From NCBI RefSeq assembly GCF_024223415.1, contig NZ_CP100500.1: a stretch of DNA of 64,000 nt; one strand, written 5' to 3'. Under the pieces are notes generated by a model. That model had not been told where the DNA came from, made no database searches, and saw only the letters and a list, made by a program, of their open reading frames with translations. Made by a program: the position numbers and the translations under genes. Origin of the DNA: Escherichia coli (GTDB lineage Bacteria; Pseudomonadota; Gammaproteobacteria; Enterobacterales; Enterobacteriaceae). Below, piece by piece: positions 1,287-23,614 of the stretch; within the stretch, counting starts at the first letter, position 1, and each line of letters starts with the position of its first letter.

Positions 1287-1294
1287 TGGTTGAG

Positions 1295-2200: not shown

Positions 2201-2205
2201 TACGA

Positions 2206-3354: not shown

Positions 3355-3368
3355 ATCAATTCCTTTTG

Positions 3369-4262: not shown

Positions 4263-4275
4263 AGAACTTCCCCGC

Positions 4276-4878: not shown

Positions 4879-5050
4879 GTTTAAATCCCTTTTAATTAAT
4901 TCCTTAAAACATAATACTCTGCTTCATTTTATTCTTTATGATCTAATCCACTTTTTGCCATAAACCTGCCTGTAACAGAATGTTAATAAGACATGATTGT
5001 TGTGGCAGGATCTGCAATAATTAACAATTATCCACTTCACAGAGAATGCT

Positions 5051-5722
5051 ATGCAGTACCCGATTAACGAGATGTTCCAGACCCTGCAAGGTGAGGGTTA
5101 CTTTACCGGCGTCCCCGCCATTTTTATTCGTTTACAGGGATGCCCGGTTGGCTGTGCCTGGTGCGACACCAAACACACCTGGGAAAAGCTTGAGGATCGG
5201 GAAGTCTCCCTTTTCAGCATTCTGGCGAAGACCAAAGAGAGTGATAAGTGGGGGGCGGCGAGCAGTGAAGATTTGCTGGCTGTCATTGGTCGCCAGGGAT
5301 ACACCGCGCGGCATGTGGTGATTACGGGTGGTGAGCCTTGCATTCATGATTTGCTACCACTGACAGATCTGCTCGAAAAGAACGGTTTTAGCTGCCAGAT
5401 CGAAACCAGTGGTACTCATGAGGTACGCTGCACACCGAATACCTGGGTTACCGTATCACCAAAGCTGAACATGCGCGGCGGCTATGAAGTGTTGTCACAG
5501 GCACTGGAGCGAGCCAACGAAATCAAGCATCCAGTGGGACGCGTACGTGATATTGAAGCACTGGATGAACTTTTGGCGACGCTGACCGATGATAAACCGC
5601 GAGTCATTGCACTGCAGCCGATTAGCCAAAAGGATGATGCCACACGTTTGTGCATTGAAACCTGCATTGCGCGTAATTGGCGTTTGTCGATGCAAACCCA
5701 TAAATATTTAAATATTGCCTGA
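5051..5722 (+). CDS. queE: 7-carboxy-7-deazaguanine synthase (radical SAM, queuosine biosynthesis)
   Basis: 223-aa ORF; CxxxCxxC-type cluster motif (GCPVGCAWCDT) and overall match to QueE/YgcF. Confidence 0.93.
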   Translation: MQYPINEMFQTLQGEGYFTGVPAIFIRLQGCPVGCAWCDTKHTWEKLEDREVSLFSILAKTKESDKWGAASSEDLLAVIGRQGYTARHVVITGGEPCIHDLLPLTDLLEKNGFSCQIETSGTHEVRCTPNTWVTVSPKLNMRGGYEVLSQALERANEIKHPVGRVRDIEALDELLATLTDDKPRVIALQPISQKDDATRLCIETCIARNWRLSMQTHKYLNIA

Positions 5723-5899: not shown

Positions 5900-6059
5900 G
5901 TAGATTTTAGTTTGTATAGAGTTATTTTAAATATTTACCTTTTTAATCAATGGGTTAAGTGCTCTTTAACATGATGGATGTGTTGTTTGTGTGATACTGT
6001 AAAGTTGGTAGATTGTGACTGGCTTAAAAAATCATTAATTAATAATAGGTTATGTTTAG
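5900..6059 (+). promoter_or_regulatory. CRISPR leader (AT-rich) for array at 6060-6759
   Basis: AT-rich sequence ending ...taggttatgtttaga immediately 5' of first repeat; resembles the E. coli I-E leader as I recall it; boundaries approximate. Confidence 0.7.
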
Positions 6060-6759
6060 AGAGTTCCCCGCGCTAGCGGGGATAAACCGGCTGGATACCG
6101 ATCAATTCAATATCGTTTTACGAGTTCCCCGCGCTAGCGGGGATAAACCGGAATACCGATTCATAACGGCGGAAATGTGGATGAGTTCCCCGCGCTAGCG
6201 GGGATAAACCGGTTAATGATGTCAGTGGCGGTTTTCGTATCGCGAGTTCCCCGCGCTAGCGGGGATAAACCGAGTGAGGCAATCAAATGACCCGCCCGCA
6301 ATTAGAGTTCCCCGCGCCAGCGGGGATAAACCGTAAATCCCTCGCGCATCGAGTCAAATGTCGGAGAGTTCCCCGCGCCAGCGGGGATAAACCGGTCGCT
6401 GGAACGGGGCGAATAAAGAGGGGCTCGAGTTCCCCGCGCCAGCGGGGATAAACCGACAGCTCTTTCCCGTCGTTATCCAGTTGGTAAGAGTTCCCCGCGC
6501 CAGCGGGGATAAACCATATGATTCACGAATTACAGGAAACCAGCCGCCGAGTTCCCCGCGTCAGCGGGGGTAAACCGCTATCGGGGTGATTCTGCCAATG
6601 CTCAGAGTGGTGTTCCCCGCGCCAGCGGGGATAAACCGAGCGTTTGCTCCGGGTGGAATAACCCTGGCGGGTGTTCCCCGCTCCAGCGGGGATAAACCGT
6701 TTGCTGGAACCCAAAACTCAGCGCACAGGTTGTGTTCCCCGCGCCAGCGGGGATAAACC
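6060..6759 (+). CRISPR. Type I-E CRISPR array, 12 repeats of 29 bp with 11 spacers of 32 bp (61-bp period)
   Basis: Repeats GAGTTCCCCGCGC[T/C]AGCGGGGATAAACCG at 6060, 6121, 6182, 6243, 6304, 6365, 6426, 6487, 6548, 6609, 6670, 6731; distal repeats degenerate (GTG..., last base A). Confidence 0.98.
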
Positions 6760-7214
6760 ACCATATAACCCGTTATCTCTTTCTCAAGTTTTTATATTAG
6801 CTGTACTTGTAATAAGCAACATATCCACGTAACACCTCATGTTCAAAATAGTTCCCCATGCCAGATAAGTTCACAATTATCGATACAAAAAATTAAATTT
6901 AATCAAAGTGTTATTTGTATAATTCTTAAGCCGTTAAGAAATTTTAATCTATTATTTTTTTAATATTAATTAATGCCTGTTAATTTTTTCTTTAGTATAA
7001 CAGTGTATTTTTTAAGCTTGTTATTCATTGATTAAGTAATAAATCTGGAAATTTGTCTTTGTTTTGAGGCTAATGAGTGGTTTTACATAACCGCCTCTAT
7101 ACGCTGTTGATGAATAGTTCTTATGAATAAAGATATCCAGTTCATACTTTAAGTGAAAATTGATAAAGTGCGATTCGTATTGTCTTTTATTCTAAAGACA
7201 TCGAGTGTAGTTAA

Positions 7215-7352
7215 TATTCCTTGTAAAAACAGGGATAAACCGAACTAGTTAAAGTTTTTATTATGTTCCCTGCATCAGCGGGGATAAACCGGACTTGTTA
7301 TCATTTTTTAAGTTGTCGAACTTATGTTCCCCGCGCCAGCGGGGATAACCAT
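7215..7352 (+). CRISPR. Degenerate CRISPR remnant (2-3 decayed repeats, one 32-bp spacer) preceded by AT-rich leader-like region
   Basis: Repeat-like atgttccctgcatcagcggggataaaccg at 7263-7291 and atgttccccgcgccagcggggataacc at 7324-7350; partial cagggataaaccg at 7231-7243. Confidence 0.75.
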
Positions 7353-7397
7353 TCAGGTATGTTCAGGCCGGGCAGTTTCCCGCCCGGTCTTCCTCAC

Positions 7398-8876
7398 TTA
7401 CGCATTCGACCAGCTCTGGATCGAATCCGCATTCCCCAATTCCCCATGCATCACTTCATACGATTTTTTCAGGATCACATCAGTATGTTTGGTTAGGTCT
7501 TTGAAAATGCCTTTATTCATCGCGTCGTAGCGTTTGGCATTGCTCTCAATCGGTATAAAGATATCTTTCACGCGAACCATTTTATCGACAGCCGTTGCGT
7601 AATCCGGGTATAGCCCCAGACCTACCGCTGTATTAATCGCTGCCCCCAGGCTTGCACAACCGTTAATGGCGTTACGGCGTGCCGGAAGGTTGAACACGTC
7701 GGCAAAAATCTGCATAAACAGATCGCTGTTCGAACCGCCGCCAGTAATGATCACATGCTTTGCAAAGTGATTCATTTCATTACACATATTGTCGTAATTG
7801 TTCTTCAGCGTCAGCGCCACGCTTTCCAGTATAGAACGATATATCCATGCGTAATCCATGCTGGAATCAAAGCCGATCATAATCCCACGTTTGTAGGGTT
7901 CCCACGGGTTGGTCAGCCAGTCCAGCACCGTCATCAGACCATTACAGCCAGGCGGCACACAAGAAGCTTTTTTGTTGAGCAAATCTTCCGGTGAAAGATC
8001 CTGTGCTTTGGCATCCTGAATTAACGACTCGCCTAGCATGTCGCGCAGCCAGCTCACCGTCCACATGCCTTTACGGATACCGTAACCTTCATACAGCAAT
8101 GTTTGCGGAATAGAAGACATAATCGGCCAGTACGCCACCGGATCTTTCGGCAGTGCTTTGCCGTTCATCATCAATGCGATGTAAGTGCCAAGAGAAATTA
8201 CCGCCGTTTCATCATCCAGTAATCCGGCCCCCAGAGCTTCTACCGGTTTATCACTGGTGGTACAAACAACCGGCAGTCCTGCCGGGAAATGTGTCGCCAG
8301 TGCGGCTTGTGGTGTGATATGTCCGAGGACGGTGCCAGGCATTTGCACATCAAACAGCATATGACGGGGGATATTAAACTTATCCATTACCGCAGCATCT
8401 TCACTCCATGCCCAGCTCTTATAATCCACCGGCCACTGACCAAAATAGTTGGAGATATTGTCTTTAAACTCGCCGGTTAAGCGATGCGTCAGATAACCCG
8501 AAAAAGAGGTGACATAGGCCACGTCAGGATTAGTGTGTTCGTAGGGACGCGTTACGCGTGCATCCTGCCAGCTAATCAATGGCGCAGCTGGCGTGCCATC
8601 GGCTTTCAATAACGCACGGCAGCAACGGATGGATCCCAGACCAATACCGACAATATCTTCTTTATTCCCGGCAAACTGACTCATCAAATCGTGACCGGCA
8701 AAACATAATGATGCCCATAAATCGTCGTCAGGATGTTCTGCGGTATCGGCATCTGGCGTGTGCATCGGCTGCAATAAGCCTTTACCTTCGCAAACCACAT
8801 TACCTTCCAGATCGTACATCACCACTTTTGTGCTCTGACTTCCGCCATCAATCCCTATGATGTATTTTTTCGACAT
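7398..8876 (-). CDS. ygcE: FGGY-family carbohydrate kinase
   Basis: 492-aa ORF; FGGY kinase N-terminus (YIIGIDGGSQSTKVVMYD) and position next to CRISPR array as in K-12. Confidence 0.9.
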   Translation of the reverse strand: MSKKYIIGIDGGSQSTKVVMYDLEGNVVCEGKGLLQPMHTPDADTAEHPDDDLWASLCFAGHDLMSQFAGNKEDIVGIGLGSIRCCRALLKADGTPAAPLISWQDARVTRPYEHTNPDVAYVTSFSGYLTHRLTGEFKDNISNYFGQWPVDYKSWAWSEDAAVMDKFNIPRHMLFDVQMPGTVLGHITPQAALATHFPAGLPVVCTTSDKPVEALGAGLLDDETAVISLGTYIALMMNGKALPKDPVAYWPIMSSIPQTLLYEGYGIRKGMWTVSWLRDMLGESLIQDAKAQDLSPEDLLNKKASCVPPGCNGLMTVLDWLTNPWEPYKRGIMIGFDSSMDYAWIYRSILESVALTLKNNYDNMCNEMNHFAKHVIITGGGSNSDLFMQIFADVFNLPARRNAINGCASLGAAINTAVGLGLYPDYATAVDKMVRVKDIFIPIESNAKRYDAMNKGIFKDLTKHTDVILKKSYEVMHGELGNADSIQSWSNA

Positions 8877-8902
8877 GATTTTTCTCCTGTAATTTTCCTG
8901 GC

Positions 8903-10180
8903 TTACTTGCTGCTAGCTATTGCGGGGGCGCTATCAGCAGTACGAATTTTTTGGAACAGCAAAAAGGTAAAGACAATCACCATGGCAAGCGCCGCCATGC
9001 CCATCAGCCACATATTGCGGTAGGCTTCTGCTGCGGGCAGGGTGTCTTGCCAGTGGCCGATAATGGGGTAAACGAAGACATCCGGCAGGAATCCAATCAC
9101 CGAACAAATACCTACCGTGGTGCCCATAATGTAAGACGGTGTTCTCGCTTCGCCAGGGCAGGCCCAGTACAGCCCGCGTGAGGCGTAACAGGTGAATCCC
9201 AGCAGTAAAATCAGGCCAATCCCCATCGCGACCGATTGCGGGTTAGAGTTCGTGACGAGCAGGGCAGTCAGTGCCAGCAGGCCGATGATGGAAAGGATTT
9301 GAATCACGCGGGTAGGGGATTTCACTTTGCTGTAGGTGGTGATTATGCCGCCAAGTGGGCCGCACAGCGCGCGGAATATTTTGTTGATCACAATCCCCAT
9401 GTAGCTCGCCGCCACCAGCGACATGCCGTACATTTCGGTCAGATAGTTGGTGGAGTAACTCAGAATGGCGTAGATGGTGAAGACACCAAAAATCACCATG
9501 CTGCAATACCAGGTGGTGCTGATGCGCAAAACGGCCAGGATGTCGCTAAGCTGGAATGATTGTTTTTCTTCGTTATTGGCACTGCGCAGGTTGTTGTTAT
9601 CGCTAACAAAAAACCAGCACAGAATCCCCAACAAGATGTAAACCACACTGTAGATGATAATGACCGTTTTCAGGCTGGCGCTGTCATCCGGTGCAAAGCG
9701 AGAAAAAACCCACATGGTAAACACTGCCAGCGACATTACACCGACGCCGCGCAGCCCTTCCATCCAGCCCATAATTTTCCCTTGCTCGCTATGATCGCCA
9801 AGCAACGATGCGGCTTTAATCGACACCGACCACAGCATTAAAATCGTTGTTATCGCAAAGGCGACCTGAATACAGAGCATTACCCACAGCGGTGGATACG
9901 TTGCCATTAACAGACCCAGTAATCCGGTAATGATCATCGCGGAAGTAATCATTTTGCGGTGTGAAAATTTATCGGCAATAACGCCGCTGGGGGCATAAAG
10001 AATAATAGCCGCAATACCAAAGGTACTCATTATTAAACCTATCTCGGTATTGCTGAATCCCATAAATTTCGCCATGGGAATTTGATAAATATAACGTAAA
10101 TAAGCCAGGTCGAAACTAACGCCGCCGCTAAAACTAATTATCGCGAGGGTTATCCAACGGCGATATGAGTTGTGTTGCAT
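8903..10180 (-). CDS. yqcE: MFS-family transporter
   Basis: 425-aa ORF with ~12 hydrophobic segments; gene order matches K-12 yqcE. Confidence 0.85.
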   Translation of the reverse strand: MQHNSYRRWITLAIISFSGGVSFDLAYLRYIYQIPMAKFMGFSNTEIGLIMSTFGIAAIILYAPSGVIADKFSHRKMITSAMIITGLLGLLMATYPPLWVMLCIQVAFAITTILMLWSVSIKAASLLGDHSEQGKIMGWMEGLRGVGVMSLAVFTMWVFSRFAPDDSASLKTVIIIYSVVYILLGILCWFFVSDNNNLRSANNEEKQSFQLSDILAVLRISTTWYCSMVIFGVFTIYAILSYSTNYLTEMYGMSLVAASYMGIVINKIFRALCGPLGGIITTYSKVKSPTRVIQILSIIGLLALTALLVTNSNPQSVAMGIGLILLLGFTCYASRGLYWACPGEARTPSYIMGTTVGICSVIGFLPDVFVYPIIGHWQDTLPAAEAYRNMWLMGMAALAMVIVFTFLLFQKIRTADSAPAIASSK

Positions 10181-10358
10181 ATCGTATTCCCATTTGTAAT
10201 AGACAAAAAAAAGAGAAAAGTAAGCCGCCCTTTCAGGTGGATTACTTTTCTCAGGTCTCTAGTAATTGAAATAATAAATAACATGGAAAGCAGAGGTGTT
10301 GTGTGAGAGTAATCACGCTTCTGCTTTTTAAAACTATTTGATAATACGAATATCACAC

Positions 10359-10374
10359 TGTGATTACGATCACA
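10359..10374. promoter_or_regulatory. Predicted CRP-binding site (TGTGA-N6-TCACA, perfect half-sites) in yqcE-ygcW divergent intergenic region
   Basis: tgtgattacgatcaca read directly in sequence; embedded in longer palindrome atcacactgtgattacgatcacat. Confidence 0.6.
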
Positions 10375-10427
10375 TTAGCAGTTATGTCCTTATGCTAAAA
10401 ATTATCTCCAGTTACCAGAGATAATGA

Positions 10428-10474
10428 GAAAGGTAACTTCCCTCTCGCGGGGGAAGTTACCTTTCTTTTTTTTT
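10428..10474 (+). terminator. Strong intrinsic terminator/attenuator hairpin in the 5' leader of ygcW (15-bp perfect stem, 8-nt loop, 9-T run)
   Basis: gaaaggtaacttccc (10428-10442) pairs with gggaagttacctttc (10451-10465), followed by TTTTTTTTT 10466-10474; ends 24 nt before ygcW ATG. Confidence 0.75.
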
Positions 10475-10498
10475 GCCTTACGGAAATTGGAGCTAACT

Positions 10499-11284
10499 AT
10501 GTCAATCGAATCTCTCAATGCGTTCTCAATGGATTTTTTTTCCCTGAAAGGTAAAACCGCAATTGTTACCGGCGGGAATAGCGGTTTAGGCCAGGCATTT
10601 GCCATGGCGTTGGCCAAAGCAGGCGCAAATGTCTTTATTCCAAGTTTTGTCAAAGATAACGGCGAAACAAAGGAAATGATTGAAAATCAGGGTGTTGAGG
10701 TGGACTTCATGCAGGTGGATATCACCGCAGAAGGCGCGCCGCAGAAGATTATCGCTGCCTGCTGTGAGCGTTTCGGTACAGTTGATATTCTGGTTAACAA
10801 TGCCGGTATTTGTAAGCTGAATAAGGTGCTGGACTTCGGTCGTGCCGACTGGGACCCGATGATTGATGTGAACCTGACCGCCGCATTCGAGTTAAGCTAC
10901 GAAGCGGCAAAAATTATGATCCCGCAGAAAAGCGGTAAAATCATTAATATCTGTTCATTGTTCTCTTACTTAGGTGGACAATGGTCACCTGCATATTCTG
11001 CTACTAAACATGCTCTTGCCGGATTCACCAAAGCTTATTGTGATGAACTAGGTCAATATAATATTCAGGTAAATGGTATCGCCCCTGGCTATTATGCAAC
11101 AGATATTACGCTGGCGACACGCAGTAATCCAGAAACCAATCAGCGCGTTCTTGATCATATTCCGGCAAACCGTTGGGGCGATACTCAAGATTTAATGGGC
11201 GCAGCCGTATTCCTCGCAAGTCAGGCATCGAATTATGTCAACGGGCATTTATTAGTGGTCGATGGCGGTTATTTAGTGCGCTAA
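10499..11284 (+). CDS. ygcW: Short-chain dehydrogenase/reductase (SDR)
   Basis: ORF 10424-11284; preferred ATG 10499 (GGAG RBS 6 nt upstream), giving 261 aa; TGGNSGLG Rossmann motif and YxxxK. Confidence 0.9.
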   Translation: MSIESLNAFSMDFFSLKGKTAIVTGGNSGLGQAFAMALAKAGANVFIPSFVKDNGETKEMIENQGVEVDFMQVDITAEGAPQKIIAACCERFGTVDILVNNAGICKLNKVLDFGRADWDPMIDVNLTAAFELSYEAAKIMIPQKSGKIINICSLFSYLGGQWSPAYSATKHALAGFTKAYCDELGQYNIQVNGIAPGYYATDITLATRSNPETNQRVLDHIPANRWGDTQDLMGAAVFLASQASNYVNGHLLVVDGGYLVR

Positions 11285-11353
11285 CCCATAACGGTGGTTT
11301 CTGTTTTCTCTTATTAATGATTATTCCATTTTTATTATCAGGAAGGAATTACT

Positions 11354-12808
11354 ATGTCTTTATCTCGCGCAGCGATTGTCGACCAGCTAAAGGAAATTGT
11401 TGGTGCAGATCGCGTAATTACCGATGAAACAGTATTAAAGAAGAACAGTATTGACCGTTTTCGTAAATTTCCGGATATTCATGGTATTTATACTTTGCCG
11501 ATTCCGGCTGCGGTCGTAAAACTCGGTTCCACAGAACAAGTCTCCCGTGTGCTGAATTTTATGAATGCGCACAAAATTAACGGTGTGCCGCGTACCGGTG
11601 CTTCCGCCACCGAAGGTGGGCTGGAAACTGTTGTAGAAAACTCGGTGGTGCTCGACGGCTCCGCCATGAATCAAATCATTAATATTGATATTGAGAATAT
11701 GCAGGCGACGGCGCAATGTGGCGTTCCCCTGGAAGTGCTGGAAAACGCGTTGCGTGAAAAAGGTTACACCACGGGGCACTCTCCGCAGTCAAAGCCGCTG
11801 GCGCAGATGGGCGGCCTGGTAGCAACCCGCAGTATCGGGCAGTTCTCCACACTCTACGGTGCAATCGAAGATATGGTCGTTGGTCTGGAAGCAGTATTGG
11901 CTGATGGCACCGTCACACGCATTAAAAACGTGCCACGCCGCGCGGCTGGCCCGGACATTCGTCACATCATCATCGGCAACGAAGGTGCATTGTGCTATAT
12001 CACTGAAGTAACAGTGAAAATCTTTAAATTCACCCCGGAAAACAACCTCTTCTACGGCTATATCCTGGAAGACATGAAAACCGGCTTCAACATCCTGCGT
12101 GAAATCATGGTGGAAGGGTATCGTCCGTCGATCGCTCGTTTGTATGACGCTGAAGATGGCACCCAACACTTCACCCATTTTGCCGACGGAAAATGTGTGC
12201 TGATCTTTATGGCTGAAGGTAACCCTCGCATTGCGAAGGCGACGGGCGAAGGGATTGCGGAAATCGTTGCCCGCTACCCGCAATGCCAACGCGTGGACAG
12301 CAAGCTGATCGAAACCTGGTTTAACAACCTGAACTGGGGACCGGATAAAGTGGCTGCCGAACGTGTGCAGATCCTCAAAACCGGCAACATGGGCTTTACT
12401 ACCGAAGTGTCCGGCTGCTGGAGCTGCATCCACGAAATCTACGAAAGCGTTATTAACCGTATTCGTACCGAGTTCCCGCACGCCGACGACATCACTATGC
12501 TGGGCGGTCACTCCTCTCATAGCTATCAGAACGGCACCAACATGTACTTCGTCTACGACTACAACGTTGTCAACTGTAAGCCGGAAGAGGAAATCGACAA
12601 GTACCACAATCCGCTCAACAAAATCATCTGCGAAGAAACCATTCGCCTCGGCGGTTCGATGGTGCACCACCACGGTATCGGTAAACATCGCGTTCACTGG
12701 AGCAAACTGGAACACGGCAGCGCGTGGGCGTTGCTGGAAGGGCTGAAAAAGCAGTTCGATCCTAATGGCATTATGAATACGGGTACTATCTATCCGATTG
12801 AAAAATAA
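11354..12808 (+). CDS. ygcU: FAD-linked oxidoreductase (GlcD/alkyl-DHAP-synthase-like FAD-binding PCMH family)
   Basis: 484-aa ORF; FAD-binding domain-like N-terminal region; order matches K-12. Confidence 0.88.
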   Translation: MSLSRAAIVDQLKEIVGADRVITDETVLKKNSIDRFRKFPDIHGIYTLPIPAAVVKLGSTEQVSRVLNFMNAHKINGVPRTGASATEGGLETVVENSVVLDGSAMNQIINIDIENMQATAQCGVPLEVLENALREKGYTTGHSPQSKPLAQMGGLVATRSIGQFSTLYGAIEDMVVGLEAVLADGTVTRIKNVPRRAAGPDIRHIIIGNEGALCYITEVTVKIFKFTPENNLFYGYILEDMKTGFNILREIMVEGYRPSIARLYDAEDGTQHFTHFADGKCVLIFMAEGNPRIAKATGEGIAEIVARYPQCQRVDSKLIETWFNNLNWGPDKVAAERVQILKTGNMGFTTEVSGCWSCIHEIYESVINRIRTEFPHADDITMLGGHSSHSYQNGTNMYFVYDYNVVNCKPEEEIDKYHNPLNKIICEETIRLGGSMVHHHGIGKHRVHWSKLEHGSAWALLEGLKKQFDPNGIMNTGTIYPIEK

Positions 12809-12901
12809 TGTGTCAGGCAGCGTTCCGCGATGACGGGGCGTTGCCTTTTCGGCTTCTCAGGCGAGAAGCCGTTCTTATTACCGGACAATGAAGGGGTAAA
12901 G

Positions 12902-14239
12902 ATGAACACTTCACCGGTGCGAATGGATGATTTACCGCTTAACCGTTTTCACTGCCGCATTGCTGCGCTCACTTTCGGCGCACACCTGACCGACGGTTAT
13001 GTTCTCGGCGTCATTGGTTACGCCATTATTCAGCTTACGCCCGCCATGCAACTGACGCCGTTTATGGCGGGAATGATCGGCGGCTCGGCGCTCCTTGGTT
13101 TGTTTCTTGGCAGCCTGGTTCTTGGGTGGATCTCCGACCATATTGGTCGGCAAAAAATCTTCACCTTCAGCTTTTTGCTGATTACGCTCGCTTCGTTCTT
13201 GCAATTTTTTGCCACCACGCCAGAGCATCTTATTGGGCTGCGCATTTTGATCGGCATTGGTCTGGGAGGCGATTACTCAGTAGGTCACACCTTGCTGGCT
13301 GAATTTTCCCCGCGCCGCCATCGCGGTATTTTGCTGGGCGCATTCAGCGTGGTGTGGACCGTAGGCTATGTGTTGGCAAGTATTGCCGGACATCACTTTA
13401 TTAGCGAAAGCCCGGAGGCCTGGCGCTGGCTGCTGGCATCGGCAGCTCTGCCCGCGTTGTTGATTACGTTATTACGCTGGGGAACGCCAGAATCGCCACG
13501 CTGGCTACTGCGCCAGGGGCGTTTTGCAGAAGCTCACGCTATCGTGCATCGCTATTTTGGTCCCCATGTTTTACTGGGCGATGAAGTGGCAACGGCGACC
13601 CATAAACACATCAAAACCTTGTTCTCTTCGCGCTACTGGCGGCGCACGGCGTTTAACAGCGTCTTCTTTGTCTGCCTCGTAATCCCATGGTTTGTGATTT
13701 ATACCTGGCTGCCAACTATCGCCCAGACTATTGGACTGGAAGATGCGCTGACTGCCAGCCTGATGCTTAATGCGTTGTTAATTGTGGGCGCGCTGCTGGG
13801 ATTAGTTCTGACGCACCTGCTGGCACATCGCAAGTTTTTGCTGGGAAGTTTTTTGCTGCTGGCGGCAACGCTGGTAGTGATGGCCTGTTTGCCTTCCGGC
13901 AGTTCATTAACGCTACTGCTTTTTGTTCTCTTCAGCACCACCATTTCGGCAGTCAGTAATCTGGTGGGCATTTTGCCTGCGGAAAGTTTTCCTACTGACA
14001 TTCGCTCGCTGGGCGTCGGTTTTGCCACCGCCATGAGTCGGTTGGGGGCGGCGGTAAGTACTGGCCTGCTGCCGTGGGTGCTGGCGCAGTGGGGAATGCA
14101 AGTCACCTTATTGCTCCTGGCGGCAGTGTTGTTGGTTGGTTTTGTTGTGACCTGGCTATGGGCACCAGAAACCAAAGCCCTCCCGCTGGTGGCGGCGGGA
14201 AATGTAGGAGGTGCGAATGAACATTCTGTTAGCGTTTAA
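12902..14239 (+). CDS. ygcS: MFS-family transporter
   Basis: ORF 12830-14239; preferred ATG 12902 giving 445 aa; multiple hydrophobic segments and MFS-like GxxxDxxGRR-type motif (ISDHIGRQK). Confidence 0.85.
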   Translation: MNTSPVRMDDLPLNRFHCRIAALTFGAHLTDGYVLGVIGYAIIQLTPAMQLTPFMAGMIGGSALLGLFLGSLVLGWISDHIGRQKIFTFSFLLITLASFLQFFATTPEHLIGLRILIGIGLGGDYSVGHTLLAEFSPRRHRGILLGAFSVVWTVGYVLASIAGHHFISESPEAWRWLLASAALPALLITLLRWGTPESPRWLLRQGRFAEAHAIVHRYFGPHVLLGDEVATATHKHIKTLFSSRYWRRTAFNSVFFVCLVIPWFVIYTWLPTIAQTIGLEDALTASLMLNALLIVGALLGLVLTHLLAHRKFLLGSFLLLAATLVVMACLPSGSSLTLLLFVLFSTTISAVSNLVGILPAESFPTDIRSLGVGFATAMSRLGAAVSTGLLPWVLAQWGMQVTLLLLAAVLLVGFVVTWLWAPETKALPLVAAGNVGGANEHSVSV

Positions 14240-14996
14240 AGCCGAACCGGATGCCGGAATGCTGGCGGAAAAAGAGTGGCAGGCGGCGGCTCAGGGTAAT
14301 AGCGGACCGGATGTTTCGCTACTGCGAAGTTTACTCGGTGCTGATGAACAGGCTGCCGCCGCGCTGCTGTTGGCGCAGAGAAAAAACGGTACGCCGATGT
14401 CTTTAACCGCGTTGAGCATGGGGGATGAACGGGCGTTACACTGGCTGCGCTATCTCATGGCTCTTGGGTTTGAGGAAGCTGTATTGCTGGAGACGGCGGC
14501 AGATCTGCGCTTTGCGTCGGAATTTGTCGCTCGCCATATTGCCGAATGGCAGCGTCAGAATCCGCTGGATCTGATAATTACCGGCTGCCAAAGCAGCGAA
14601 GGGCAGAATGGGCAAACGCCATTTTTGCTGGCGGAAATGCTGGGCTGGCCCTGCTTCACCCAGGTGGAGCGTTTCACTCTCGACGCGCTGTTTATCACCC
14701 TCGAACAGCGTACTGAACATGGGCTGCGCTGTTGCCGGGTTCGCTTGCCTGCGGTGATTGCCGTGCGTCAGTGCGGTGAAGTGGCCTTGCCAGTACCGGG
14801 AATGCGCCAGCGAATGGCTGCGGGGAAAGCGGAAATTATCCGTAAAACTGTTGCTGCCGAATTGCCAGCGATGCAGTGTCTGCAACTGGCAAGAGCAGAG
14901 CAACGACGCGGAGCGACGCTGATTGATGGGCAAACGGTAGCAGAAAAAGCGCAAAAGCTATGGCAGAACTATTTACGCCAAAGGATGCAGCCATGA
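14217..14996 (+). CDS. ygcR: Electron-transfer flavoprotein beta-subunit-like protein
   Basis: ORF 14211-14996 (start ~14217); ETF-beta-like; overlaps ygcS end and ygcQ start. Confidence 0.8.
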   Translation: MNILLAFKAEPDAGMLAEKEWQAAAQGNSGPDVSLLRSLLGADEQAAAALLLAQRKNGTPMSLTALSMGDERALHWLRYLMALGFEEAVLLETAADLRFASEFVARHIAEWQRQNPLDLIITGCQSSEGQNGQTPFLLAEMLGWPCFTQVERFTLDALFITLEQRTEHGLRCCRVRLPAVIAVRQCGEVALPVPGMRQRMAAGKAEIIRKTVAAELPAMQCLQLARAEQRRGATLIDGQTVAEKAQKLWQNYLRQRMQP

Positions 14997-15853
14997 ATAT
15001 CGCAATTGTGACAATAAATCAGGAGAATGCCGCAATAGCAAGCTGGCTGGCGGCACAGGATTTCAGCGGTTGTACCCTGGCGCACTGGCAGATTGAACCT
15101 CAGCCTGTAGTGGCGGAACAGGTGCTGGATGCGTTGGTGGAACAGTGGCAGCGAACGCCTGCGGACGTTGTTCTCTTTCCGCCGGGAACGTTTGGCGATG
15201 AACTGTCGACCCGGCTGGCCTGGCGTTTACATGGTGCAAGCATCTGCCAGGTGACTTCGTTAGAGATTCCAATCGTAAGCGTGCGCAAATCCCACTGGGG
15301 AAATGCGCTAACGGCGACGCTGCAAACAGAAAAACGCCCGCTATGTCTTTCCCTGGCGCGCCAGGCGGGAGCAGATAAAAATGCCACGTTGCCCTCTGGT
15401 ATTCAGCAACTGAACATAGTCCCAGGTGCGCTTCCGGACTGGCTGGTTAGCATAGAGAACCTGAAAAATGTTAGCCGCGACCCATTAGCTGAGGCCAGAC
15501 GGGTGTTGGTGGTAGGGCAGGGCGGAGAGGCAGATAACCAGGAAATCGCTATGCTGGCAGAAAAGCTGGGAGCCGAAGTGGGCTACAGTCGGGCGCGAGT
15601 GATGAACGGTGGCGTTGATGCTGAAAAAGTGATTGGTATTTCCGGACATCTGCTGGCACCTGAGGTGTGTATTGTTGTTGGCGCTTCTGGCGCAGCAGCG
15701 TTAATGGCGGGCGTGCGCAATAGCAAGTTTGTGGTGGCGATTAATCATGACGCCAGCGCTGCGGTATTTTCACAGGCAGATGTTGGCGTGGTTGATGACT
15801 GGAAAGTGGTGCTGGAGGCACTGGTGACAAACATTCACGCAGATTGCCAATAA
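14993..15853 (+). CDS. ygcQ: Electron-transfer flavoprotein alpha-subunit-like protein
   Basis: ORF 14960-15853; preferred ATG 14993 giving 286 aa; ETF-alpha-like C-terminal FAD-binding region. Confidence 0.82.
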   Translation: MNIAIVTINQENAAIASWLAAQDFSGCTLAHWQIEPQPVVAEQVLDALVEQWQRTPADVVLFPPGTFGDELSTRLAWRLHGASICQVTSLEIPIVSVRKSHWGNALTATLQTEKRPLCLSLARQAGADKNATLPSGIQQLNIVPGALPDWLVSIENLKNVSRDPLAEARRVLVVGQGGEADNQEIAMLAEKLGAEVGYSRARVMNGGVDAEKVIGISGHLLAPEVCIVVGASGAAALMAGVRNSKFVVAINHDASAAVFSQADVGVVDDWKVVLEALVTNIHADCQ

Positions 15854-15874
15854 CGTGTTGCCGGATGATCCTGC

Positions 15875-15955
15875 CTACGGTTCTGGCCTGGGGACTTGTA
15901 GGCCTGATAAGACGCGTCAAGCGTCGCATCAGGTGCTGAATGTCGGATGTGGCGT
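15875..15955. repeat. REP/BIME-type extragenic palindromic element(s)
   Basis: gtaggcctgataagacgcgtcaagcgtcgcatcaggtg and adjacent gatgtggcgtgtagcctac; characteristic E. coli REP sequence; boundaries approximate. Confidence 0.8.
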
Positions 15956-15999
15956 GTAGCCTACAAATCACACAAATTCAATTCGTTACGAATATCCCG

Positions 16000-16575
16000 T
16001 CAAAGCAATTTTTTCGCTAATGTCCAGACCCCGGTATTCGTGGTGGAAAGCGCCACGACACCCGCGTTAATCGCATTACGCGCATCTTCTTCATCGCAAA
16101 CCAGCCCACCGGCAATCAGCGGTTGGCGGATTTTCTCCGTCACCCAGCCCAGTACTTTGGGCATGCAGCCTGGCAGGATCTCAATACAATCCGGATTCGA
16201 TTGCGCAACTTGCTTATCAATGTTGTGAAACGAAATCGAATCAACAATAAACAGGCGATGAATACAGAAAAAACCTTCCGCTCTTGCCGCTTTTAGCATC
16301 GATGCTTTGGTGCTGATAATGCCGTCCGCCTCGGTCACCAGTTTCAAAAACTGAATCACGACTTCTTTATTTGACGCGCCTTCCAGCAAATCAACATGAA
16401 TAAAAGCATATTTCCCGGCGTTCTTAATCTTTTTAACGATATTACTGATGGTGCAGATATTGCCGTACAACACGGAAATAAACTGGCATTCAGAGTCGAT
16501 TGCCAGTTGCAGGCTGGCATTATCTTTTACGGCAGCAATCACCGGATTCTGGCGGAGCAGGTGTAAGAGGGGCAT
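16000..16575 (-). CDS. ygcP: GlpP-like glycerol-3-phosphate-responsive antiterminator family protein
   Basis: 191-aa ORF; family assignment from K-12 synteny and recall. Confidence 0.8.
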   Translation of the reverse strand: MPLLHLLRQNPVIAAVKDNASLQLAIDSECQFISVLYGNICTISNIVKKIKNAGKYAFIHVDLLEGASNKEVVIQFLKLVTEADGIISTKASMLKAARAEGFFCIHRLFIVDSISFHNIDKQVAQSNPDCIEILPGCMPKVLGWVTEKIRQPLIAGGLVCDEEDARNAINAGVVALSTTNTGVWTLAKKLL

Positions 16576-16591
16576 AAATTATCCTTATTAT

Positions 16592-16852
16592 TTATCCAAA
16601 GCGGTAGGTGATGCCGAATCCGGAAGGTGGATAGCGCCACTGTTGTAGTGTTGATTCGTCGCACAGCAAACGGCAGGTGCCACACTCCAGGCAACTGCGA
16701 TAGTCAATACGTAAGTCACCTTCCGGTGTGAGCGAAAAAAGACCTGCCGGACAGGCGTTAATCAACCGTTCTGCCGTCTGGCGCTCAACGGAGTCAGCCG
16801 GAACAATGTGCGGCGCATCAGCAACGCGCCAGAGATTACGGGCTACAGACAT
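16592..16852 (-). CDS. ygcO: FixX-like ferredoxin-type protein
   Basis: ORF 16592-16888; preferred start 16852 giving 86 aa; Cys-rich (CLECGTCRLLCDES); overlaps ygcN stop. Confidence 0.8.
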   Translation of the reverse strand: MSVARNLWRVADAPHIVPADSVERQTAERLINACPAGLFSLTPEGDLRIDYRSCLECGTCRLLCDESTLQQWRYPPSGFGITYRFG

Positions 16853-18114
16853 CGCAGACTCCTGATAACATCGCCCGCCAGATGCCACAGGCCGTGACGA
16901 CGTAAATGACGCCAGAATAACTGGCGCAGCGGTGGAACAGGTTTATCACCCTGATCCCATAAATCGCGGGAAATATCCTGCATTAACGCAGGCCACGCCC
17001 GATACCAGCCAGGGCGTTGCAAAAGCGCCGGAACATGCTGATAACGTTGTAGAACATCCCACAGCAGGCTGCGCTCTACGTTGTGATGATAAAGCGGAAA
17101 CAGATTTTGCGGCTCGCGGTGCTGGCAGGCGCTTATCAGTGTTTGTGCCGCCGCCTGCGCGCCAGTTAGCGCCGTATCCATGCCGCGCACGGAAATTCCG
17201 GTATTGACGCAACTGCGCAACGCATCGCCTACCAGCAGCCAGCCGTTACCGGCGTATTGCACTGGCATACTGTGCAAGCCACCTTCTGGCACCAGATGCG
17301 CACCATACTCCAGTGATTCCGTGTTTTTGATAAGTGGGCGCACTGCCGGATGCGCTTTAAAGCGAGTCAGCAGCTCGCTTGCCGGAACACGACTTTGCGT
17401 AAGTGAAGAGAGCGGGCAAACAATCCCTAACGAGAGCGTTTGTTGATTAGTATAAAGAAATGCGCCGCCGGGAAAGTCATCACAGATTCCGCCGCTGAAC
17501 AGCAACGCTGCGCCTTCGTTATTCTCCAGATGAAAACGTTCTTCAATAGCGGATGTTTCCAGCGACAGCACTTCTTTGATCCCCAACGCCATCGCTTCGC
17601 CAGCAGGACGAGTCACTAATCCGTGACGCTCAGCCAGGACGCTGTTGGCACCTTCTGCCAGCACCACATAACGGGCGCGGAGAATATCGTCACCACAAAT
17701 GACACCACACACCCTGCCGTCTTCTTCATACAGAGCATCCACCGTCGCACCAGGGATGCACTCGACACCTTCTTTTTCGGCTTCGGCAACCAGCCACGGA
17801 TCGAACCGTGCACGTAATACACTCCAGGATTCACCGCCGGGCTGTAAGCTGGAAAACGTCGTTGCGCCATCCGGCGTTAACAGGGAAAGGCTTTCGTGAG
17901 TGATGAGTCGTTCAAGAGGCGCGGTCAGATGAAATTGCGGGAGGAGTTCCGCGAGTGCATGGGTATATAACCGCCCGCCGGAAAGATTTTTGCTGCCGGG
18001 GATTTCAGCGCGTTCCAGTAACAAAACGGATAAACCCGCTCGCGCGCAGCGTAACGCGCAAGCGGTGCCTGCAATACCGGCACCAATAATAATAATGTCG
18101 CAGTCGTCTTCCAT
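16843..18114 (-). CDS. ygcN: FixC-like FAD-dependent oxidoreductase (ETF-quinone oxidoreductase family)
   Basis: ORF 16843-18144; preferred ATG 18114 giving 423 aa; N-terminal dinucleotide-binding motif DIIIIGAGIAGTACA. Confidence 0.88.
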   Translation of the reverse strand: MEDDCDIIIIGAGIAGTACALRCARAGLSVLLLERAEIPGSKNLSGGRLYTHALAELLPQFHLTAPLERLITHESLSLLTPDGATTFSSLQPGGESWSVLRARFDPWLVAEAEKEGVECIPGATVDALYEEDGRVCGVICGDDILRARYVVLAEGANSVLAERHGLVTRPAGEAMALGIKEVLSLETSAIEERFHLENNEGAALLFSGGICDDFPGGAFLYTNQQTLSLGIVCPLSSLTQSRVPASELLTRFKAHPAVRPLIKNTESLEYGAHLVPEGGLHSMPVQYAGNGWLLVGDALRSCVNTGISVRGMDTALTGAQAAAQTLISACQHREPQNLFPLYHHNVERSLLWDVLQRYQHVPALLQRPGWYRAWPALMQDISRDLWDQGDKPVPPLRQLFWRHLRRHGLWHLAGDVIRSLRCL

Positions 18115-18191
18115 GTCATGCCCCAGATATCCTGAACACAACACCCTAACATAGCGTTACTTAAGGGAAATTGACCGCCGACACACTCTTA

Positions 18192-18557
18192 TCATTCGCC
18201 GCGATAGATACAACCAGCGGTGCAGGTTTCTTTTACCATCACCGCACTTAACAGCGGCACAACGGGTTTAACCTGATCCCAAATCCATTTTGCTAAAACT
18301 TCGCTGGTCGGGTTTTCCAGACCTGGAATATCATTGAGATAATGGTGATCGAGGCGGTCATAAGTTGGCTTAAACGCCGCTTTCAGTTCAGCGAAATCGA
18401 TAATCCAGCCCGTATGCGGATCGACTTCCCCGGTAATTTCCAGTCGCACCATAAAGGAATGCCCGTGCAGGCGACCACATTTATGCCCTTCCGGGACGTG
18501 TGGTAAGCGGTGAGCGGCTTCGAAGGTGAAATCTTTAAATAACGTGGTGGACATCAT
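18192..18557 (-). CDS. queD: 6-carboxy-5,6,7,8-tetrahydropterin synthase (queuosine biosynthesis)
   Basis: ORF 18192-18641; preferred start 18557 ([20 protein letters not shown]...) giving 121 aa; PTPS-family HxH motif. Confidence 0.9.
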
Positions 18558-18872
18558 AATTTCTCTACAGGACGATAAAACCGCCGTAGAGTACCGGAAA
18601 GGCTGTTTTTTCGCATTATCTAAAACGACTTTGTTGCGCAAAATCGCTGATTTATCTTAATGATTGGCTAAATTCATTTGTTTTTCATTAGGTTGGTTAA
18701 TCTATTTTGTTGTTAAAGACTATTGCTAAAACAGGTTAGTCGATTTGGTTATTAGTTATCGCTATCCCGTCTTTAATCCACACCGTTCACCCCGTTAACC
18801 TTACCTTCTCTTCTGTTTTATGGGCGCTGACAGGGCGCAGAAACAGCTTTGCTTACTGGAACATAACGACGC

Positions 18873-20672
18873 ATGACGACACAGGTCCCACCTTCCGCGT
18901 TGCTTCCGTTGAACCCGGAGCAACTGGCACGCCTTCAGGCGGCCACGACCGATTTAACTCCCACCCAGCTTGCCTGGGTTTCTGGCTATTTCTGGGGCGT
19001 GCTCAATCAGCAGCCTGCTGCGCTTGCAGCAACGCCAGCGCCAGCCGCAGAAATGCCGGGTATAACTATTATCTCCGCCTCGCAAACCGGCAATGCGCGC
19101 CGGGTTGCTGAAGCATTACGCGATGATTTATTGACGGCAAAACTGAACGTTAAGCTGGTGAGCGCGGGCGACTATAAATTCAAACAAATCGCCAGCGAAA
19201 AACTGCTTATCGTGGTGACGTCAACGCAAGGGGAAGGGGAACCGCCGGAAGAAGCCGTCGCGCTGCATAAGTTCCTGTTCTCCAAAAAAGCGCCGAAGCT
19301 GGAAAATACCGCTTTTGCCGTGTTTAGCCTCGGCGATAGTTCTTATGAATTTTTCTGCCAGTCCGGGAAAGATTTCGACAGCAAGCTGGCGGAACTGGGC
19401 GGTGAACGCCTGCTCGACCGTGTCGACGCCGACGTTGAATACCAGGCTGCTGCCAGCGAGTGGCGCACCCGCGTGGTTGATGCGCTTAAATCGCGTGCGC
19501 CTGTCGCGGCACCTTCGCAATCCGTCGCTACTGGCGCGGTAAATGAAATCCACACCAGCCCGTACAGCAAAGACGCGCCGCTGGTGGCTAGCCTCTCTGT
19601 TAACCAGAAAATTACCGGGCGTAACTCTGAAAAAGACGTTCGCCATATCGAAATTGACTTAGGTGACTCGGGCCTGCGCTATCAGCCGGGCGACGCGCTG
19701 GGCGTGTGGTATCAGAACGATCCGGCACTGGTGAAAGAACTTGTCGAACTGCTGTGGCTGAAAGGCGATGAAACTGTCACCGTTGACGGCAAAACGCTGA
19801 CCCTGCGCGAAGCGCTACAGTGGCACTTCGAACTGACGGTTAACACCGCCAATATCGTTGAGAACTATGCCACGCTTACCCGCAGTGAAACGCTGCTGCC
19901 GCTGGTGGGCGATAAAGCGAAGTTGCAGCATTACGCCGCGACCACGCCGATTGTCGATATGGTGCGTTTCTCTCCGGCACAGCTTGATGCTGAAGCGCTG
20001 ATTAACCTGCTGCGCCCGCTGACGCCGCGTCTCTATTCCATCGCCTCCTCGCAGGCGGAAGTCGAGAACGAAGTACACGTCACCGTTGGTGTGGTGCGTT
20101 ACGACGTGGAAGGCCGCGCCCGTGCCGGTGGTGCCTCCAGCTTCCTCGCTGACCGCGTGGAAGAAGAGGGCGAAGTCCGCGTATTTATCGAACATAACGA
20201 TAACTTTCGCCTGCCCGCTAACCCGGAAACCCCGGTGATTATGATAGGCCCAGGCACCGGTATTGCGCCGTTCCGCGCCTTTATGCAGCAACGCGCCGCT
20301 GACGAAGCGCCAGGTAAAAACTGGCTGTTCTTTGGCAATCCGCATTTTACGGAAGACTTCCTGTATCAGGTGGAGTGGCAGCGCTACGTCAAAGAGGGGG
20401 TGCTGACGCGGATCGATCTCGCCTGGTCGCGCGATCAAAAAGAAAAAGTTTACGTACAAGACAAACTGCGCGAACAGGGCGCGGAGCTGTGGCGCTGGAT
20501 CAATGACGGTGCCCACATTTATGTCTGCGGCGACGCTAATCGCATGGCGAAAGACGTTGAGCAGGCACTTCTGGAAGTGATTGCCGAATTTGGTGGCATG
20601 GACACCGAAGCGGCGGATGAATTTTTAAGTGAGCTGCGCGTAGAGCGCCGTTATCAGCGAGATGTCTACTAA
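18873..20672 (+). CDS. cysJ: Sulfite reductase [NADPH] flavoprotein alpha subunit
   Basis: 599-aa ORF; flavodoxin + FAD/NADPH-binding domains; ends ...ERRYQRDVY. Confidence 0.97.
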
Positions 20673-23609: not shown

Positions 23610-23614
23610 CCACC

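Follow-up and report, generated by a model that had tools for sequence, protein, structure and literature searches.

The uncharacterised ygc gene cluster of Escherichia coli: an alkyl-DHAP-synthase-like flavoenzyme in a cross-phylum cassette, and a candidate family of antitermination leader RNAs

Introduction

The ygc gene cluster of Escherichia coli, at positions 7398-18114 of the stretch of DNA analysed here (the window: 64,000 nucleotides of contig NZ_CP100500.1, RefSeq assembly GCF_024223415.1), is built of parts that are known in kind, namely a promoter under the cAMP receptor protein (CRP), GlpP-type antitermination, a short-chain dehydrogenase/reductase (SDR) with an FGGY-family kinase, a flavoenzyme with its own electron-transfer flavoprotein (ETF) and a FixCX pair, whilst their arrangement is undescribed. 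Alkyl-dihydroxyacetone-phosphate synthase (alkyl-DHAP synthase, AGPS) works by flavin-N5 adduct chemistry on dihydroxyacetone phosphate (DHAP) substrates. In LctBCD of Acetobacterium woodii (7qh2) and the GlcD type, as in ygc, the gene of a PCMH-fold flavoenzyme lies beside those of its own EtfB and EtfA. The caiTABCDE-fixABCX and ydiQRST systems of E. coli itself likewise attach paralogous FixAB, FixC and FixX sets to a catabolic module, and the cai system also has a BCCT carrier for a quaternary amine. GlpP of Bacillus subtilis, with the glp leader, offers a further likeness in a PF04309 protein and in the competition between an intrinsic terminator and an antiterminator helix upstream of it.

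The ygc cluster itself has long been known and is annotated as uncharacterised, its genes being among the longest-standing orphans of E. coli K-12. It is arranged as ygcE-yqcE, ygcWUSRQ and ygcNOP, with ygcW, ygcU, ygcS, ygcR and ygcQ on the plus strand and ygcE, yqcE, ygcP, ygcO and ygcN on the minus strand. The interval is 100% identical to E. coli KV7 and its open reading frames (ORFs) agree with the KV7 RefSeq annotation; all ten are intact, and in K-12 MG1655 the same ten genes are also intact and every one is named 'putative'. An earlier note on this DNA, made from the sequence alone, had listed an FGGY kinase, two major facilitator superfamily (MFS) transporters, an SDR, an FAD-linked oxidase, ETF proteins, FixCX-like proteins and a GlpP-like protein, all in uninterrupted frames. 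Pfam and NCBIfam, with bit scores set against curated cut-offs, reproduced every one of these domain calls, and a check for pseudogenisation was negative. None of the ten proteins reached an NCBIfam equivalog cut-off, and annotation therefore yields no specific function. The same note had held the substrate to be not established, and this still stands, as we found no substrate assignment for ygc genes in the full-text literature searched, outside of which a paper may exist. Deamination of D-serine by YgcU was tested by others, with no effect (PMC13012123), and one literature mention of 'ygcO' proved to be a misspelling of ycgO.

What appears to be new in the cluster is threefold: its catabolic operon includes an AGPS-like enzyme, its leader RNA is conserved and belongs to no Rfam family, and it is linked to betaine-type transport across phyla.

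Results

The gene ygcU (11354-12808, plus strand) encodes a 484-aa protein of the PCMH/VAO fold (FAD_binding_4 and FAD-oxidase_C), with a PCMH-type FAD-binding domain (PF01565, 124 bits) and an FAD-oxidase C-terminal cap domain (PF02913, 71 bits). Its best relatives in the PDB were the alkyl-DHAP synthases 4bby and 2uuu, whose matches (135-142 bits) scored well above those to glycolate oxidase, LctD, D-LDH and D2HGDH, most of which were limited to the FAD domain: alignments stopped at YgcU residue ~225-230 for LctD, D-LDH and D2HGDH and at ~265 for glycolate oxidase, LctD matching in the FAD domain only, at 82-93 bits. A profile of 14 YgcU orthologues aligned with guinea-pig AGPS (4bby) over residues 179-428 and 523-652, which span the FAD and cap domains. 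Catalytic positions were located by the single-residue differences of the 4bc7 and 4bca alignments from that of wild-type 4bby, these two entries being, we take it, the R419H and Y578F mutants of AGPS. Arg419 of AGPS corresponds to R262 of YgcU (in ARLYD), Tyr578 to Y398 (in NMYFVY) and the His615-617 loop (SHHHGVGK) to H438-440 (VHHHGIGK), and all of these YgcU residues are invariant in the 14 sequences, which come from several phyla. YgcU has neither the GEHG motif nor the alignable cap domain of the GlcD/LctD type, and carries HHHG where LctD and FAD2, a paralogue described below, carry GEHG. By its sequence, the active site of YgcU is AGPS-like rather than GlcD-like. The earlier label of FAD-linked oxidase thus stood as a domain call but can be narrowed to alkyl-DHAP-synthase-like on the strength of the catalytic residues. 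The N-terminal domain of AGPS has no counterpart in YgcU (484 versus 658 aa), the alignment starting at AGPS residue 179, and since YgcU lacks the first ~180 residues we do not class it as an AGPS. By analogy with that enzyme, the conserved site suggests that YgcU binds a 1-substituted DHAP and acts via a flavin-N5 adduct at C1.

In order to place YgcU in context, 80 loci round its orthologues (the 80 best matches, 64-100% identity) were fetched and each was scored for the ten E. coli proteins. The SDR YgcW, YgcU and the FGGY kinase YgcE are adjacent in all 80 loci long enough to judge, and these span at least six phyla; the cassette was seen in Enterobacterales, Desulfobacterales, Clostridia, halophilic Bacilli, actinomycetes and Photobacterium. 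Between phyla YgcU keeps an identity of 64-75%, with 71-73% in Sporomusa, Alkalihalobacillus, Desulfobacula and Photobacterium. The YgcW-type SDR, which always adjoins YgcU, shows 63-97% identity across the loci and 63-81% in other phyla, and the YgcE-type kinase 43-58% outside the close enterics. Most cassette loci also have a GlpP-type protein. The genes for ETF beta and alpha follow that of YgcU in anaerobes and most Enterobacterales, and are missing from halophilic Bacilli, actinomycetes and loci of the Pantoea/Erwinia type; FixC, FixX and YgcS were restricted to Enterobacterales among the loci scored. From this distribution of modules it follows that the E. coli locus is a composite of an ancient SDR-flavoenzyme-kinase-antiterminator cassette with lineage-specific transport and electron-transfer modules, which agrees with the step in GC content and the difference in evolutionary rate described below. 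No recurring aldolase, isomerase or epimerase was found near the cluster.

Clusters of anaerobes and Photobacterium carry a second, LctD-like FAD dehydrogenase (FAD2), which in the Photobacterium locus L004 (13187-16591) and in L063, L064 and L069 (downstream of ETF alpha) is accompanied by another pair of ETF genes. In Photobacterium the additional EtfA carries a ferredoxin domain at its N-terminus, with a similar extension in Geosporobacter, and FAD2 with the second ETF resembles the bifurcating lactate dehydrogenase/ETF complex. Two of the fetched records look like contamination or mis-binning: a contig from a metagenome-assembled genome (MAG) labelled Planctomycetota (L005, JADFMM010000147.1), whose YgcU is 100% identical to the E. 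coli protein, and a 'Chryseobacterium' assembly (L028, CACSKA010000005.1) with a complete enteric-type ygc locus.

The regulatory region of the cluster lies between yqcE and ygcW, where a spacer of 318 bp holds two CRP palindromes, each with a leader downstream. The CRP-like palindrome TGTGAGAGTAATCACG (10301-10316) lies ~41 bp upstream of the inferred transcription start of yqcE, and the perfect palindrome TGTGATTACGATCACA (10359-10374) is centred ~41.5 bp upstream of the inferred ygcW start (~10408); this activating distance was deduced from a -10-like element and the start of the leader. The second site is among the top published PhyloScan predictions, and yqcE-ygcE is listed as Crp-activated (PMC8085971). 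Control by cAMP-CRP, which the earlier note had envisaged, is borne out by the two palindromes and by the binding of the 10359-10374 site both in vivo, as a CRP ChIP-seq peak in enterotoxigenic E. coli (PMC4287617), and in vitro, where Footprint-seq gave a Kd of ~1.7 nM (PMC12871828).

A terminator scan, folding and covariation identified the ygcW leader RNA at 10406-10477 (plus strand; 80.3 bits with our covariance model R1). It contains a 19-bp intrinsic terminator (10426-10467) followed by U9, ending ~25 nt before the ygcW ATG, and upstream of this AGUUACC (10410-10416) can pair with GGUAACU (10432-10438) of the terminator 5' arm; the fold has an energy of -41.8 kcal/mol (z = -5.9). The yqcE leader RNA (10203-10271, minus strand) has the same architecture, with the antiterminator strand AAUUACU and a terminator hairpin GAGAAAAGUAAU...UUACUUUUCUC followed by U8, and matched R1 over its full length (60.2 bits, E = 1e-9; fold -23.3 kcal/mol, z = -2.75). 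The motif GAGAAARGTAA occurs three times in the window against 0.05 expected, and the region upstream of ygcN showed no leader structure (z = 0.03). In an alignment of 29 leaders the terminator helix was 87.5% paired with compensatory changes in 12 of 19 pairs, and the antiterminator helix 98.5% paired with five of seven pairs compensatory, registers slid by 1-3 columns being at most 55% paired. Across the 69 distinct leaders recovered with R1 the antiterminator helix was 94.3% paired, one of its pairs, for example, being G-C in 51 leaders and A-U in 16. Within E. coli the leader was found at this locus only, in 5,063 of 5,426 genomes and usually in two places. Leaders upstream of SDR genes in other loci share the design of the ygcW leader across phyla. 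The ygc leader matched no Rfam family, and we regard it as a candidate new family of cis-regulatory RNA, its newness being judged against Rfam only.

The presence of a GlpP-like protein in the cluster is explained by these two terminator/antiterminator leaders. The earlier note had recognised the GlpP-like antiterminator correctly and had missed both leader RNAs. The protein, YgcP, is encoded by the last gene of the ygcNOP operon (16000-16575, minus strand; G3P_antiterm) and matches PF04309 over its full length with 211 bits, and the Listeria glycerol-uptake antiterminator 3kts with 100 bits. It is 53-61% identical in the leader-bearing Firmicutes and Photobacterium loci. The leader co-occurs with a GlpP-type gene and both are absent from the Desulfobacterales and SAR324 loci, several of the Desulfobacterales having sigma-54 activators in their place. 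By analogy with GlpP, YgcP is presumed to be the trans-acting factor for both leaders.

The R1 leader also marks genes beyond the cassette. It stands before BCCT genes in four loci (L002, L064, L066 and L069, from Sporomusa, Dethiosulfatibacter and two Clostridia MAGs), before operons of Opu-type (OpuAC/OsmF-like) ATP-binding cassette (ABC) transporters in two Bacillota MAGs (L074 and L075), and before YqcE-like MFS genes in L004, L078, L081 and L083, which represent Photobacterium, Prauserella, Saccharopolyspora and a rumen Eubacterium. The leader of L075 stands immediately before a stretch with an MttB-superfamily methyltransferase gene, a PanB-like gene and the Opu operon. Of the 25 mapped loci that were neither enteric nor actinomycete, ~20 have BCCT or Opu systems at their flanks, and the cassette-linked BCCTs form one orthologous group, with 73-80% identity between Geosporobacter, Clostridia MAGs and Halobacillus. 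Non-pyrrolysine MttB homologues lie within the operon in L072 and L053, and corrinoid and pterin-binding methyltransferase partners are nearby in Sporomusa and Desulfobacula. Sugar ABC or phosphotransferase (PTS) systems were never linked to the cassette or leader in the mapped loci of other phyla. The BCCT/Opu and MttB links point to an N-methylated, betaine- or choline-like substrate or product and not to a plain polyol. Pyrrolysine read-through in a Desulfopila MttB-like gene, which would imply release of trimethylamine (TMA), was considered and rejected, as the ORF abuts the next gene.

Loci of the Pantoea/Erwinia/Serratia type and SAR324 have a homologue of the formaldehyde-activating enzyme (Fae), an aldo-keto reductase and an aldehyde dehydrogenase of the succinate-semialdehyde dehydrogenase (SSADH) subfamily beside the cassette, neighbours that we read in the same direction as the BCCT, Opu and MttB genes. 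Fae homologues above the TIGR03126 cut-off were found at 2386-2889 of L034, 2459-2962 of L048 and 6890-7390 of L050, and in the Erwinia/Pantoea/Serratia relatives and SAR324 they share an operon with a YgcS-type MFS carrier. To our knowledge, tetrahydromethanopterin is not to be expected in the enteric genera that have the Fae homologue.

The remaining proteins could be placed in families and in few cases further. The kinase YgcE (7398-8876, minus strand; 492 aa; FGGY_N 71 bits, FGGY_C 79 bits) fell in none of the FGGY specificity groups (XylB, GlpK, LsrK, AraB and so on), its best NCBIfam matches being XylB (144 bits, cut-off 380), LsrK (140, cut-off 528) and GlpK, all far below their cut-offs, and its nearest solved structures the AI-2 kinase LsrK and glycerol kinases. 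The SDR YgcW (10499-11284, plus strand; 261 aa; adh_short 182 bits) is like KduD and gluconate-5-dehydrogenase (NF005390, 350 bits, cut-off 369), enzymes that oxidise the hydroxyl adjoining a terminal CH2OH. The MFS_1 transporter YqcE (8903-10180, minus strand; 425 aa) gave weak matches to the D-galactonate and PgtP subfamilies, which are of the organo-anion type; its Photobacterium orthologue is 59% identical and preceded by an R1-type leader RNA, and we consider YqcE a candidate importer. YgcS (12830-14239, plus strand) is a Sugar_tr/MFS protein of the sugar-porter type (Sugar_tr 180 bits) that also matched TIGR00898 'cation transport protein' (137 bits) and resembles NiaP/OCT/SV2 proteins, and its overexpression in whole cells speeds the conversion of nicotinamide to nicotinamide mononucleotide (PMC8601175). 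It is 445 aa long in the K-12 annotation (start ~12902) versus 469 aa here. A terminator-like scan found a GC-rich 9-bp hairpin, CGGCUUCUC-AGGC-GAGAAGCCG (12850-12871, plus strand), just 3' of ygcU, within the 469-aa ygcS ORF but ahead of the start that ygcS has in K-12. GC content and evolutionary rate change at this same point, and the hairpin may be the end of an ancestral ygcW-ygcU operon, or an internal attenuator.

On the electron-transfer side, YgcR (14217-14996, plus strand; overlapping ygcS by 23 nt) is a divergent ETF beta and YgcQ (14993-15853, plus strand; overlapping ygcR by 4 nt) a divergent ETF alpha with its FAD-binding domain. Their ETF folds are present (PF01012 60 bits for YgcR; PF00766 64 bits and PF01012 28 bits for YgcQ) and their scores against NCBIfam ETF models were 44-76 bits, none near its cut-off; the syntenic ETF-beta genes that follow YgcU in anaerobes show 26-37% identity to YgcR. 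YgcO (16592-16852, minus strand; 86 aa) is a FixX-like ferredoxin (NF011993, 82 bits) whose translation has the cysteine pattern CPAG...CLECGTCRLLC (CxxCxxCxxxC). YgcN (16843-18114, minus strand; 423 aa) is a flavoprotein like FixC and ETF-quinone oxidoreductase (ETF-QO); NF007450 (376 bits) and NF007542 FixC (365 bits, cut-off 610) both stayed below cut-off, whilst the ubiquinone-binding domain PF21162 (ETFQO_UQ-bd) reached 29.7 bits against 27.7, so that together with YgcO it has the features of a FixCX/ETF-QO pair.

Of 5,426 complete E. coli genomes, 5,060 (~93%) carry at least 80% of the region, and ~7% are without most of the cluster; insertion sequence (IS) insertions or partial deletions are occasional. 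Codon-wise comparison with E. albertii, divergent E. coli, Klebsiella spallanzanii and Citrobacter was used to estimate ratios of non-synonymous to synonymous substitution (dN/dS). No stop codons were found in the orthologues of the ten genes in Escherichia, Klebsiella and Citrobacter, and all ten genes are under purifying selection. The core (ygcW, ygcU, ygcP, ygcE and yqcE) has dN/dS values of 0.01-0.05 (ygcE 0.03; ygcW 0.01-0.03; ygcU 0.01-0.03; ygcP 0.01-0.04), ygcS 0.05-0.06, and the ETF and FixCX genes 0.07-0.32 (ygcR 0.09-0.32; ygcQ 0.11-0.23). With low dN/dS and no stop codons, the cluster is therefore functional and not decaying, and consists of a highly constrained core with a faster-evolving electron-transfer periphery. 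The earlier description of an island does not hold within E. coli, given the ~93% carriage, the strong purifying selection and the lack of any annotated integrase, transposase or tRNA in the region. Judged by variable presence, mobility genes, a tRNA/integrase boundary and atypical composition, the region is no genomic island; GC content is mixed (42-57%), being 42-52% up to ~13 kb and 53-57% from ygcS to ygcN. The locus behaves as near-core in E. coli and is patchy only at the level of genera, being found in Citrobacter, in single species of Klebsiella, Enterobacter, Serratia, Rahnella, Pantoea and Erwinia and in several minor genera. No Salmonella locus was found among the 80 best genomic matches to YgcU.

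The cluster is flanked by queE and CRISPR repeats on one side and by queD-cysJIH-cas3 on the other, in agreement with the CRISPR arrays and queD/cys genes of the earlier note. A repeat search detected the CRISPR repeats, a type I-E array with 12 repeats at a spacing of 61 bp, at 6059-6759 and 7212-7351; the short second group consists of three degenerate repeats and stops 47 bp short of the ygcE 3' end. Tandem Repeats Finder had not picked up these repeats. Between eno and queE, at ~1170-4760 of the window (1776-5359 of the fetched locus L001), lie three TPM-domain genes and a LemA-family gene where K-12 has only yqcG and ygcG, so that a strain-variable segment adjoins the CRISPR array. Between cysH and cas3 the annotation has a gene for a toxin of the Hok/Gef family (~23460-23610 of the window; 24060-24212 of L001). 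The spacer between the convergent ygcQ and ygcP (15854-15999) folds into hairpins like those of repetitive extragenic palindromes (REP/BIME), and the sole match in an Rfam search of 7000-19000 was a weak, sub-threshold one to the REP-derived naRNA4 (26 bits, E = 0.32).

Discussion

We propose, with slightly less than even confidence, that the ygc genes form an inducible pathway for a small vicinal-diol (glycerol-like) compound attached to, or releasing, a quaternary-ammonium group. We infer the order of its reactions, the nature of the substrate, the ligand and RNA binding of YgcP and the direction of electron flow as follows. cAMP-CRP would fire the two divergent promoters, and the transcripts would halt at the leader terminators unless YgcP, loaded with a phosphorylated intermediate of the pathway by analogy with GlpP and glycerol-3-phosphate, stabilised the competing antiterminator helix. 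The onium-bearing diol would be imported by the MFS carriers YqcE and/or YgcS; YgcW would oxidise its secondary alcohol (C2) and YgcE phosphorylate its primary alcohol, in either order, so that X-CH2-CHOH-CH2OH would become the 1-substituted DHAP analogue X-CH2-CO-CH2-OPO3. YgcU would then attack C1 via a flavin adduct and expel the substituent, collapse of the hydrated adduct giving either DHAP or hydroxypyruvaldehyde phosphate with reduced flavin. Electrons would pass from the YgcU flavin to the ETF YgcRQ and by way of the FixCX-like YgcNO to the quinone pool. An aldehyde product would suit the aldo-keto reductase and aldehyde dehydrogenase of other lineages. The more general idea of the earlier note, of a substrate-specific oxidative pathway coupled to an ETF/FixCX chain, is supported by the analysis.

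As candidates for the substrate we consider glycerophosphocholine, glyceryl ethers of betaines (deacylated betaine lipids) and a trimethylammonio-propanediol. A fuller version of the proposal is only tentative and on balance doubtful: that the ygc core represents in E. coli a horizontally spread, so far unrecognised pathway whose AGPS-like enzyme breaks a C-N or C-O bond adjoining the ketone in an oxidised and phosphorylated glycerol derivative of a quaternary amine, releasing choline, betaine or trimethylamine together with a C3 phosphate, in a regulon under a new GlpP-dependent class of RNA. Carnitine was initially attractive, by the presence of BCCT/OpuC and an SSADH-like dehydrogenase and the analogy of 3-dehydrocarnitine to acyl-DHAP, and was rejected for want of a primary hydroxyl for the invariant FGGY kinase and of a phosphorylated ligand for the GlpP-type protein. 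Dihydroxypropanesulfonate (DHPS) was set aside since BCCT, Opu and MttB are unsuited to an anion; E. coli is reported to excrete DHPS unchanged.

Several observations weigh against the pathway proposed here. The E. coli locus has no BCCT, Opu or MttB gene, and its substrate could therefore differ from that in other phyla. AGPS chemistry is net non-redox, so that a dedicated ETF chain is not obviously needed, and the ETF/FixCX genes evolve 5 to 10 times faster than the core. An AlphaFold2 model of YgcU built from 14 sequences was too poor to define the pocket (mean pLDDT 65.8, and below 50 round the HHH loop), and the link between compound and genes is drawn from sequence and context. We know of no trimethylammonio-diol as a natural compound, and E. 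coli already has GlpQ/UgpQ to deal with glycerophosphocholine, the most abundant of the candidates. Nor does the proposal explain in detail the neighbours of the cassette in some lineages, which are Fae, aldo-keto reductase, SSADH-like and aspartase-like.

The substrate might instead be a neutral polyol or sugar acid (a tetritol, pentitol or keto-deoxy acid) that the SDR converts to a ketose and the FGGY kinase phosphorylates, with YgcU a GlcD-type 2-hydroxy-acid or alditol-phosphate dehydrogenase feeding the ETF. An SDR with an FGGY kinase is indeed the classic polyol pair, the top scores of YgcW are to KduD/gluconate-5-dehydrogenase and those of YgcS to sugar-porter models, the carriers of the E. 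coli locus are all MFS, and GlpP homologues respond to a polyol phosphate. However, the catalytic residues of YgcU are of the AGPS type and not the GlcD type, no aldolase, isomerase or epimerase recurs nearby, and in other phyla it is BCCT/Opu transporters and MttB methyltransferases, and in no case sugar ABC or PTS systems, that accompany the cassette and leader; the 'polyol or sugar-acid like' substrate of the earlier note is not supported, and we regard this account as unlikely. The electrons could also run the other way, as has been proposed for FixABCX with carnitine, from quinol or NADH through YgcNO and YgcRQ to a YgcU that reductively cleaves an alpha-ammonio or alpha-oxy ketone phosphate, the substrate being in part an anaerobic electron sink. 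The paralogous FixABCX proteins of E. coli feed electrons to the reduction of crotonobetainyl-CoA, reductive cleavage beside a carbonyl is known from glycine betaine reductase, and the ETF occurs mainly in anaerobes or facultative anaerobes and is absent from strict aerobes; yet the ETF-QO-type ubiquinone-binding domain of YgcN is typical of delivery to quinone, and the LctD-like dehydrogenase and ferredoxin-domain ETF that loci of anaerobes add look oxidative, which makes reversal, in our estimate, less likely still.

Catalysis by AGPS is redox-neutral and needs oxidised FAD, and a YgcU that keeps the AGPS catalytic residues could be a non-redox lyase or hydrolase that yields DHAP directly, the ETF/FixCX proteins then being a maintenance circuit that keeps the flavin oxidised without O2. 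This would fit the absence of the ETF from aerobic lineages (halophilic Bacilli, actinomycetes and the Pantoea/Erwinia type) and the weaker constraint on the ETF/FixCX genes than on the core, but four genes would be a costly form of maintenance and the operon coupling of ETF and YgcU across phyla suggests stoichiometric electron transfer, so that we consider this explanation improbable. A cryptic remnant that no longer has a function in E. coli seems very improbable indeed. Decades of K-12 work have reported no phenotype, ~7% of genomes are without most of the cluster and IS insertions occur; yet both this strain and K-12 have all ten genes intact, conservation extends to the leaders and CRP sites, and dN/dS values are 0.01-0.05 in the core and do not exceed 0.32 in the others, with zero stops in the orthologues of Escherichia, Klebsiella and Citrobacter.

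The proposed pathway for a glycerol-like, quaternary-ammonium compound is a testable hypothesis with a narrow list of substrates, by virtue of the conservation of the cassette (64-80% identity), the co-regulation with betaine-type transporters and the AGPS residues, and the ygcW leader is a ready-made reporter. If the substrate were indeed a choline- or betaine-bearing glycerol derivative, the pathway would matter for methylamine and TMA production in the gut and, in marine and hypersaline systems, for how osmolytes and lipid head groups are turned over; it would also be a new way for gut and marine bacteria to release methylamines, and would put AGPS chemistry to a new catalytic use. The leader would be the first GlpP-type antitermination target described in Enterobacterales.

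To turn to the described systems, among solved structures AGPS (4bby, 2uuu) is closest to YgcU across the FAD domain as well as the cap domain, with the catalytic Arg, Tyr and His loop kept; YgcU differs in that its gene belongs to a catabolic operon that also encodes a kinase, an SDR and an ETF, and in occurring in bacteria that do not make ether lipids by that route, so that acyl/alkyl exchange is not implied. LctBCD has a further counterpart in the ygc clusters of anaerobes, with their LctD-like FAD2 and ferredoxin-domain EtfA; E. coli has neither FAD2 nor the second ETF, and YgcU has HHH where LctD has GEHG. Unlike the cai and ydi systems, ygc has a kinase, an SDR and an AGPS-like enzyme and is without a CoA-transferase or acyl-CoA dehydrogenase, its ETF subunits are far more divergent, and carnitine itself is unfit as a substrate, having no primary hydroxyl to offer the FGGY kinase. 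In contrast to those of GlpP in B. subtilis, the presumed targets of YgcP are not glpFK, glpD or glpTQ, and E. coli is a Gram-negative bacterium that already uses the GlpR repressor for glycerol; the ygc leader motif, RTTACY-AGAG-N-GAGAAARGTAAY...U-run, is in no Rfam family and travels across phyla with the cassette.

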